Below are positions 45,602 to 45,764 of a DNA stretch of 64,000 nucleotides, one piece after another. The notes below the pieces were generated by a model. The model searched no databases and had not been told where the DNA came from. It was given only the letters and a program-made list of their open reading frames with translations. Origin of the DNA: Flavobacteriaceae bacterium (GTDB lineage: Bacteria; Bacteroidota; Bacteroidia; Flavobacteriales; Weeksellaceae); NCBI GenBank assembly GCA_030538275.1, contig JAUNUH010000011.1, positions 46,683 through 110,682 of the forward strand, written 5' to 3'. The position numbers and the translations under genes are program-made. Positions within the stretch are counted from its first letter, which is position 1. Each line of letters opens with the position of its first letter.

Positions 45602-45764
45602 TGGAAACTTTGATTGTAATTTTACCTTATAAAAATTGTTTATAAAAGTATAAGTCTCTTTATTTATGCATGTTTTACAATGGAAACTCAAATTTTAACA
45701 ATTCATTTTCAGTATCTTAAGTTTATTAAATTATTTTTTATTTCATTTTATGTTTTTAAATTTG
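45602..45764 (+). promoter_or_regulatory. cassette 2 control region: distal TGGAAACTTT box, proximal ATGGAAACTCAAATTTTAACAATTCA box, -7-like TAAATTTG
   Basis: TGGAAAC starts at 45602 and 45681 (79 bp apart). TAAATTTG at 45757 matches the Bacteroidota TAnnTTTG -7 consensus, 76 bp after the proximal box. Confidence 0.55.

Follow-up and report, generated by a model that had tools for sequence, protein, structure and literature searches.

Which signal is carried by the pair of short boxes that recurs upstream of several large surface-protein cassettes in this genome, and which protein would be expected to bind it? The window, i.e., the whole stretch of 64,000 nucleotides analysed here (C16:46683-110682), belongs to a 2.49-Mb genome of 20 contigs with about 36% G+C, in which promoters are of the Bacteroidota type TAnnTTTG. 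Repeated cassettes occupy the plus strand from window position 37978 on; beyond the window, contig C16 completes cassette 5 and contains a sixth one, and an additional cassette is located on contig C5. Each cassette encodes a large variable exported adhesin-like protein with Big_9, CshA, DUF11, RCC1-like or beta-helix domains, in some cases a second protein ending in a common C-terminal module, and as its last gene a small 'S' protein of about 175-200 aa. Across the family, 94 of 151 sampled genomes, representing 37 of 49 genera, had such S-protein cassettes, frequently several each. TetR-family genes adjoin cassettes 2, 4 and 5: T2 (about 44740-45351, plus strand, with a Pfam TetR_N match) precedes cassette 2, and T4 (57074-57775) and T5 (61746-62429), both on the minus strand, are divergent from cassettes 4 and 5, respectively. 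Neither cassette 3 nor the sixth cassette has a TetR gene of its own. A protein-family scan covered 20 ORFs of the cassette region, ORFs at 1-37000 lying outside it, and the cluster showed no candidate regulator genes besides the TetR genes.

The proximal box was located through the 21-mer ATGGAAACTCAAATTTTAACA, which matches exactly at 45680, 52978 and 62773, always on the plus strand, with 0.01 matches expected in the window. The sixth cassette has a fourth copy before its first gene, at C16:112417 (window-equivalent 65735); it reads CTGGAAACTCAAATTTTAACACTTCA and is preceded at 79 bp by AGGAAACTTT. A search of the whole 2.49-Mb genome returned no proximal copies besides these four. Three genome matches with three mismatches, two within coding sequence and one beside a run of N, were attributed to chance. 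All four copies are thus found within one 20-kb stretch of contig C16, each before the first gene of a cassette. The genome-wide count had been proposed in the initial annotation as a check for a dispersed repeat, and a REP or MITE was rejected on its outcome, there being just four copies at one locus.

Ungapped comparison of the four copies gave a conserved proximal block of 33 nt, (A/C)TGGAAACTCAAATTTTAACA(A/T/C)TTCA(T/C)T(T/C/A)TCA(G/A), occupying 45680..45712, 52978..53010 and 62773..62805 on the plus strand of the window; the positions first assigned to this box were correct, and its length of 26 nt was too short. The distal box TGGAAACTTT was recovered by exact matching at 45602..45611, 52900..52909 and 62695..62704, again on the plus strand and as initially annotated. 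Single copies elsewhere were confirmed as well, namely TGGAAAC at 37706 and TGGAAACTTT at 40593. The core common to proximal and distal boxes is TGGAAACT. In all four copies the distal motif GGAAACTTT is invariant and stands exactly 79 bp upstream, so that no indel has accumulated between the boxes despite the drift of the sequence there, and the same 79-bp spacing holds between the two TGGAAAC of each of the three pairs in the window: the pattern TGGAAAC-N72-TGGAAAC occurs three times in the whole genome, and all three occurrences are these pairs. GGAAACTTT by itself is present 36 times genome-wide, nine times in intergenic sequence, and four of these nine are the distal boxes.

The contrast between box and surroundings is pronounced. 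Within the 33-nt block pairwise identity is 88-94% and 20 consecutive bases are invariant in four copies, whereas the 68 nt between the boxes are identical at 0.37-0.63, modestly above random, and the flanks downstream of the block have fallen to the random level (0.30-0.44 vs 0.33 expected). The earlier description of conserved boxes in drifted sequence is borne out, and the boxes are real footprints of constraint among paralogous promoters. One could argue instead that the box is functionless, either a relic that gene conversion between cassettes has kept identical or a short recombination site that served to duplicate cassettes. Cassettes do evolve by duplication and conversion, and over about 160 nt the leader of the sixth cassette shows some 96% identity to that of cassette 5. 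Against a relic, the edges of the block are sharp and fall in the same place in all six pairwise comparisons, the closest pair included; the differences among copies are scattered single positions and not tracts; and the distal motif is also found in another species. All copies are direct, so that recombination between them would delete genes, and no integrase or recombinase family was matched among the 20 cassette-region ORFs scanned. The direct orientation, the missing recombinase match among these ORFs and the absence of conversion tracts leave the recombination site without support, and we hold the functionless reading as a whole to be improbable.

Downstream of the boxes, all four copies show a plus-strand TAnnTTTG, identified by match to the consensus, at +77, +77, +78 and +79 from the start of the proximal box. 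In cassette 2 the predicted -7 element is TAAATTTG at 45757..45764, and the start codon of its first (a) gene follows 40 nt on, at 45797; in cassette 5 the predicted element is TATATTTG at 62851..62858, with a TTTG -33 element 21 nt upstream. Cassette 3 has two candidates in tandem (53055..53089), TACATTTG at 53055 and TATATTTG at 53082, which are 27 nt apart; the second has the better -33 partner, TTTG at 19 nt upstream (TTTG-N19-TATATTTGC), and MAFFT aligns this element, and not the one at 53055, with those of the other copies. By consensus match, a -33 TTTG at N19-21 from the -7 accompanies the second site of cassette 3, cassette 5 and the sixth cassette, and the downstream element is therefore predicted to follow the Bacteroidota sigma-A -33/-7 pattern (TAnnTTTG, TTTG 19-21 nt apart). 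The elements first listed at 45757, 53055 and 62851 are all present. The constant 76-77 bp from proximal box to -7 element that had been claimed for them is secure in the three other copies and ambiguous in cassette 3 (77 or 104 bp), because of the second and better -33/-7 pair at 53082.

Measured from the predicted -7 element, the boxes start 76-78 nt (proximal) and 155-157 nt (distal) upstream; relative to the predicted transcription start they would be about 58-90 and 160-170 bp upstream, and not over the promoter. Before the boxes the plus strand showed no TAnnTTTG, and in cassettes 2 and 3 the box regions come after terminator-like hairpins. A minus-strand promoter inside the box (AAAATTTG) was considered and dropped, as its TA is missing and no consistent feature is found to the left of the box, and a scan for E. 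coli-type sigma-70 promoters was set aside as inapplicable to Bacteroidota.

This arrangement bears on the possibility, noted from the beginning, that a translated leader peptide, METQILT(I/F/L)H(F/S/Y)Q..., starts at the proximal box and would regulate the operon. ATG-initiated short ORFs of 30, 24 and 35 codons do begin at the box in three copies, exactly as described, and of the five positions that vary, two are third positions with synonymous change. The fourth copy, on the other hand, opens with CTG, and reading back in frame to the nearest stop reveals neither ATG nor GTG nor TTG; the peptides of the four copies are unrelated after residue 11; and the box has terminators, and no plus-strand TAnnTTTG, ahead of it. 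The statement that conservation comes without synonymous variation is true of codons 2-7, six consecutive codons that are invariant at all third positions beside saturated neutral flanks, and is incorrect for codons 9 and 11, which differ synonymously (CAT/CAC, CAG/CAA). Since the fourth copy has CTG without an upstream start and codons 2-7 never vary, a peptide is unlikely, and the preference of the initial annotation for a nucleic-acid-level signal is upheld; we regard the leader peptide as having hardly any chance of being correct. A structured cis-regulatory RNA or small RNA was not detected: RNAalifold over both boxes predicted 0 pairs, and Rfam gave no match in the box region at the gathering threshold or at E<=1. 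The fold of the cassette 5 leader is not unusually stable either (z = -0.9).

The boxes are not limited to the two of each pair. TGGAAAC is found 23 times in the window against 12.1 expected, 21 times on the plus strand, and nine of the 23 fall in the upstream regions of cassettes. With up to one mismatch, the 420 nt surrounding the promoter contain six same-strand copies in cassette 5 and four in cassette 3, over a background of about 0.9, and the opposite strand of the same regions has almost none. Cassettes 3 and 5 each have a third box as well, some 76-83 bp before the distal box; it is TGGAAAC at 52817..52823 (plus strand, 83 bp before the distal box) in cassette 3 and a degenerate version (TGAAAACTCAAGATTT; TGAAAACTCAAG at 62619) at 62619..62634 (plus strand, 76 bp before it) in cassette 5. 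Upstream of cassette 1, single TGGAAAC boxes at 37706 and 37934 flank TATTTTTG at 37907 (37706..37940, plus strand). A TGGAAAC scan of the cassette upstream regions found no box before cassette 4, in line with the initial annotation. No 80-bp tandem-repeat homology was found between box units. The boxes were called direct repeats and not palindromes, and this stands: at the spacing of an operator there is no opposite arm, since nothing similar to AGTTTCC follows either box after 12-14 nt. An internal dyad of the proximal box is weak (25 bp, 8/12 pairs by hand count) and not significant after correction for the choice of centre, and an inverted-repeat search of the intergenic regions returned AT-rich noise only.

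A clue to the kind of protein involved came from the comparison of the seven TetR paralogues of the genome. One of them, C11b (C11:89154-89762), heads a TetR-TolC-membrane-fusion efflux operon, and its upstream region carries TGGAAACTCATTTGGTTTTTCAG, 20 nt before its -7 element TATCTTTG. C11b orthologues, 44-67% identical to it, were gathered from a further 29 genomes of the family; in 28 of the 29 an inverted repeat, GGAAACT-N13-AGTTTCC (consensus CTTGGAAACTTTTTTGGTTTATTAGTTTCC), lies directly upstream of TAnnTTTG with the -33 TTTG between its arms. By this phylogenetic footprint GGAAACT-N13-AGTTTCC is a textbook autoregulatory TetR operator as predicted from sequence; in the genome studied here the right arm is degenerate (AGTTTTT; C11:89763-89830). 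The left arm of the operator with its flank, TGGAAACTTT, equals the distal box letter for letter, and TGGAAACT(T/C), the core of the boxes, is the same sequence as the C11b-type operator's half-site. This operator footprint was obtained as a by-product, and it may have wider use than the boxes themselves.

As GGAAACT is the arm of an inverted repeat in the family, the core would be a transcription-factor half-site and not a sigma element, which touches directly on the proposal that the boxes represent an alternative-sigma element. Under that proposal the proximal box would itself be a promoter, either for an ECF sigma factor (GGAAAC as -35 and TTCA about 16 nt downstream) or for sigma-54 with its -24/-12 elements. 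GGAAC- or GAAAC-type -35 elements are typical of ECF sigma factors, and the genome contains seven ECF-type sigma genes, none on contig C16, as well as rpoN inside the window (9359-10843). But none of the seven ECF genes has TGGAAAC upstream (0/7), i.e., there is no autoregulatory signature; the entire proximal 'spacer' is invariant, which is unusual in a promoter; and the distal box has no conserved -10 partner. For sigma-54 the expected GG-N10-GC fails at -12, where the proximal box has TTTT in place of GC, and among the distal boxes TTGC is seen in cassette 3 only, shifted from the register by one base. The alternative-sigma proposal of the initial annotation is accordingly not supported by these observations, and we rate it as very unlikely.

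Turning to the cassette-linked regulators, T2 shares with C11b the same recognition helix, ISKKTLYQH (ISKKTLYQHF in T2), and C11b is the closest paralogue of the T2 DNA-binding domain (46% across 54 residues and 67% within the HTH core); among the C11b orthologues the helix reads (M/I)SKKTLYQ(K/H)Y. The segment LKISKKTLY is common to T2, T5 (helix ISKKTLYKYY) and a paralogue on contig C8, whereas T4 differs (FSLKSIY, in FSLKSIYNMF), and the distribution of the boxes tracks this helix type, with T2 and T5 on one side and T4, whose cassette 4 is without a box, on the other. Because TGGAAACT is the C11b-type half-site and T2 has the C11b helix, a TetR-family protein is the leading candidate binder. 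T2 would come first and T5 second, and C11b is possible as well. The initial annotation had played down TetR on account of the placement of the boxes; the half-site and helix matches now favour TetR, while the position far upstream and the direct repeats remain non-classical as it had pointed out.

We give about even chances to a reading of the boxes as direct-repeat arrays of TetR-type half-sites, by means of which T2 and/or T5 would control four adhesin operons jointly. It is built on the observed conservation, locus restriction and spacing, the identity of the core with the operator half-site, the helix similarity and the co-location of TetR genes, and from these we infer binding and the identity of the binder, the binding mode and the sign of regulation. 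In the proposed mechanism, the boxes would be protein-binding cis-regulatory DNA sites common to cassettes 2, 3, 5 and the sixth cassette, bound putatively by the cassette-linked T2 and/or T5 or possibly by the efflux-type C11b. Two to three same-orientation half-sites, about 80 bp apart, would lie upstream of a sigma-A -33/-7 promoter, and one ligand-responsive regulator would switch four operons together. The positions of the boxes (-58 to -90 and about -160 to -170), the same orientation of the half-sites and their periodicity of about 80 bp speak against simple promoter occlusion, and the upstream position together with the missing dyad partner suggests either upstream activation or repression at a distance, the latter through cooperative multi-site binding. 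A non-classical mode of TetR action, by activation or at a distance, is thus likely. An elaborate form of this mechanism, in which TetR paralogues would have departed from the classical dimer bound to a palindrome at the promoter and, on such arrays far upstream, form a wrapped or looped nucleoprotein complex that activates the adhesin operons or makes them mutually exclusive, is in our estimate quite unlikely; if true, half-site arrays would constitute a transcriptional route to coordinated or one-at-a-time display of surface proteins in Bacteroidota.

Several findings count against TetR half-site arrays read by T2 or T5. The boxes are lone half-sites with no AGTTTCC at N12-14, cassette 3 and the sixth cassette have boxes without a TetR gene of their own, and a congener, G061, has the distal motif without an orthologue of either protein. 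All of these would suit a different regulator encoded elsewhere, such as a response regulator or an AraC-type protein, acting as a class-I-type upstream activator on direct, non-palindromic repeats located near -75 and -155 relative to the -7 element; the match of a core of only seven bases to the TetR half-site would then be coincidental. TGGAAACT is indeed common, with 107 occurrences in the genome, and the boxes do not stand out in a ranking by half-site weight matrix. On the other side, the cluster is without candidate regulator genes besides TetR; the 10-mer TGGAAACTCA occurs nine times in the genome, four times as the proximal boxes and only five times outside the cluster, one of which is the C11b operator; and box presence tracks the T2/T5 type of recognition helix as opposed to that of T4. 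We therefore consider a different regulator possible though unlikely.

Two further leads on the TetR side were followed and abandoned. A putative autoregulatory site of T2, AGAAACT-N12-TGTTTTT at 44563-44588, is not significant, since degenerate inverted repeats of the operator type are frequent and 450 sites in the genome, scoring at least 11/14, are equally good; and 9-mers common to the box and the upstream regions of T5 and of the C8a paralogue are at chance level.

Among known systems, the classical TetR operator resembles the boxes in its half-site, for which T2 with its matching helix would be the candidate protein, but the boxes have neither dyad symmetry nor, going by the predicted promoter, the overlap with a promoter or start. 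Compared with the predicted operator of the Weeksellaceae TetR-TolC-MFP efflux operon, the core TGGAAACT followed by T or C is the same; that operator, however, is a 27-bp inverted repeat over the -33 element, whereas the boxes are direct single half-sites about 80 bp apart and 60-170 bp upstream, and the proximal box has 25 further conserved bases without a counterpart in it. LuxR, HapR and SmcR of Vibrio are TetR-fold master regulators; their sites lie upstream of promoters and are asymmetric, with weak dyad character, and such proteins can act as activators of many operons. Our structure-database comparison gave weak sequence matches to HapR and LuxR chains, but nothing specific is shared in sequence beyond the HTH, the motif differs, and activation here would be deduced from position. 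The same comparison matched IcaR (PDB entries 3geu and 2zcm), the TetR-family regulator of the staphylococcal ica adhesin/biofilm operon, which it adjoins divergently. IcaR is similar in being encoded beside, and divergent from, a surface-adhesion operon, but it binds close to the icaA start and not at distant paired boxes. Class I upstream activator sites, e.g., those of CRP, are centred at -61.5 to -92.5; the boxes are similarly placed, and the spacing between box and promoter is roughly kept (77-79 bp in three or four copies), but they have no CRP/FNR-like palindrome and the host uses -33/-7 promoters.

Taken at face value, the sequence evidence makes an ordinary but lineage-specific regulator docking site the most likely identity of the boxes, which appear to form a real, well-delimited, lineage-specific cis-regulatory module, i.e., a new motif or operator variant and not a new principle. 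If the regulatory reading is true, a single small regulon, controlled by a defined 33-nt site and a recognisable TetR half-site, would comprise four large adhesin operons, and perhaps others, of the tail-fibre-like 'docking module' type, and this would offer a direct experimental handle on when these poorly understood surface-protein cassettes are expressed.

How far does the module extend beyond this genome? An exact scan for the 24-nt box in genome and metagenome contig collections gave 0 matches, and at up to two mismatches 200 genomes of the family showed no enrichment over a reversed-pattern control. The paired-box pattern matched three times in the genome contig collection, in unrelated taxa and at chance level, and a literature search on the motif returned primer noise only. 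GGAAACTTT was absent from 20 cassette loci of other genera. In G061, which belongs to the same genus, it lies upstream of two of five cassettes, where about 0.02 are expected from the genome-wide 9-mer frequency, and one of these copies stands 164 nt before a -7 element, TATGTTTGC, with a degenerate proximal-like sequence 75 nt after it; neither T2 nor T5 has an orthologue there. The boxes thus appear to be confined to the source species, save for traces of the distal motif in one congener, and for this reason their importance would be local and not general.

T5 is also narrowly distributed. Among 5.8 billion proteins the only homologue of T5 at E<=1e-20 was T5 itself, and an exact look-up led to a single Logan contig that is 100% identical to the window; T5 is unusually isolated for a TetR regulator. 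T4 has relatives further afield: a TetR in another genus (L083, G048:C73, 3420-4376) is 41% identical to T4 and 52% to C8b, a TetR paralogue of the genome studied here, and is divergent from a cassette-4-like adhesin operon at a distance of 275 nt. No shared motif was found between the T4 and L083 intergenic regions. A T4-like TetR divergent from a cassette in another genus indicates that the linkage of TetR genes and cassettes is no accident of the strain. C8b itself (C8:162846-163496) is the closest relative of T4 in its own genome (38%) and lies 72 nt from the end of contig C8, so a further cassette may lie across the assembly gap beyond it.

Some additional observations concern sites and repeats elsewhere. 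GGAAACT-type sites, CGGAAACTCATATTTTTCAG and GGAAACAGTTTAATAATATTAAGTTTAC, are located at C3:166607-166690, 60-140 nt upstream of a gene for a 940-aa secreted protein, and similar intergenic sites are found at C5:50022(-) and C11:125607(-); those on C3, C5 and C11 may be additional targets of a GGAAACT-binding TetR. In G061, the long intergenic regions upstream of two cassettes (loci L076 and L077 on G061:C21) contain REP-like arrays (TCTTGTCAGGCTGAGTGATTTTGC, GTCATTCCGCACTTGATGCGGAATCT), which parallel REP arrays beside the cassettes of the window.

The near-identical 5' leaders of cassette 5 (62909-63070) and the sixth cassette (C16:112560-112730) span a 29-codon ORF (MIFSDEILSEFERQKSHEIWVKNSSKNQL) as well as the opening codons of the first (a) gene. 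The promoter regions of these two cassettes are about 60-70% identical, and the coding sequence downstream of the leaders diverges fast; recent conversion or strong constraint could account for the identity of the leaders. Lastly, a Flavo-1 RNA (Rfam RF01705) is present on the minus strand of the window at 16490-16634, with 57.5 bits, above the gathering score.
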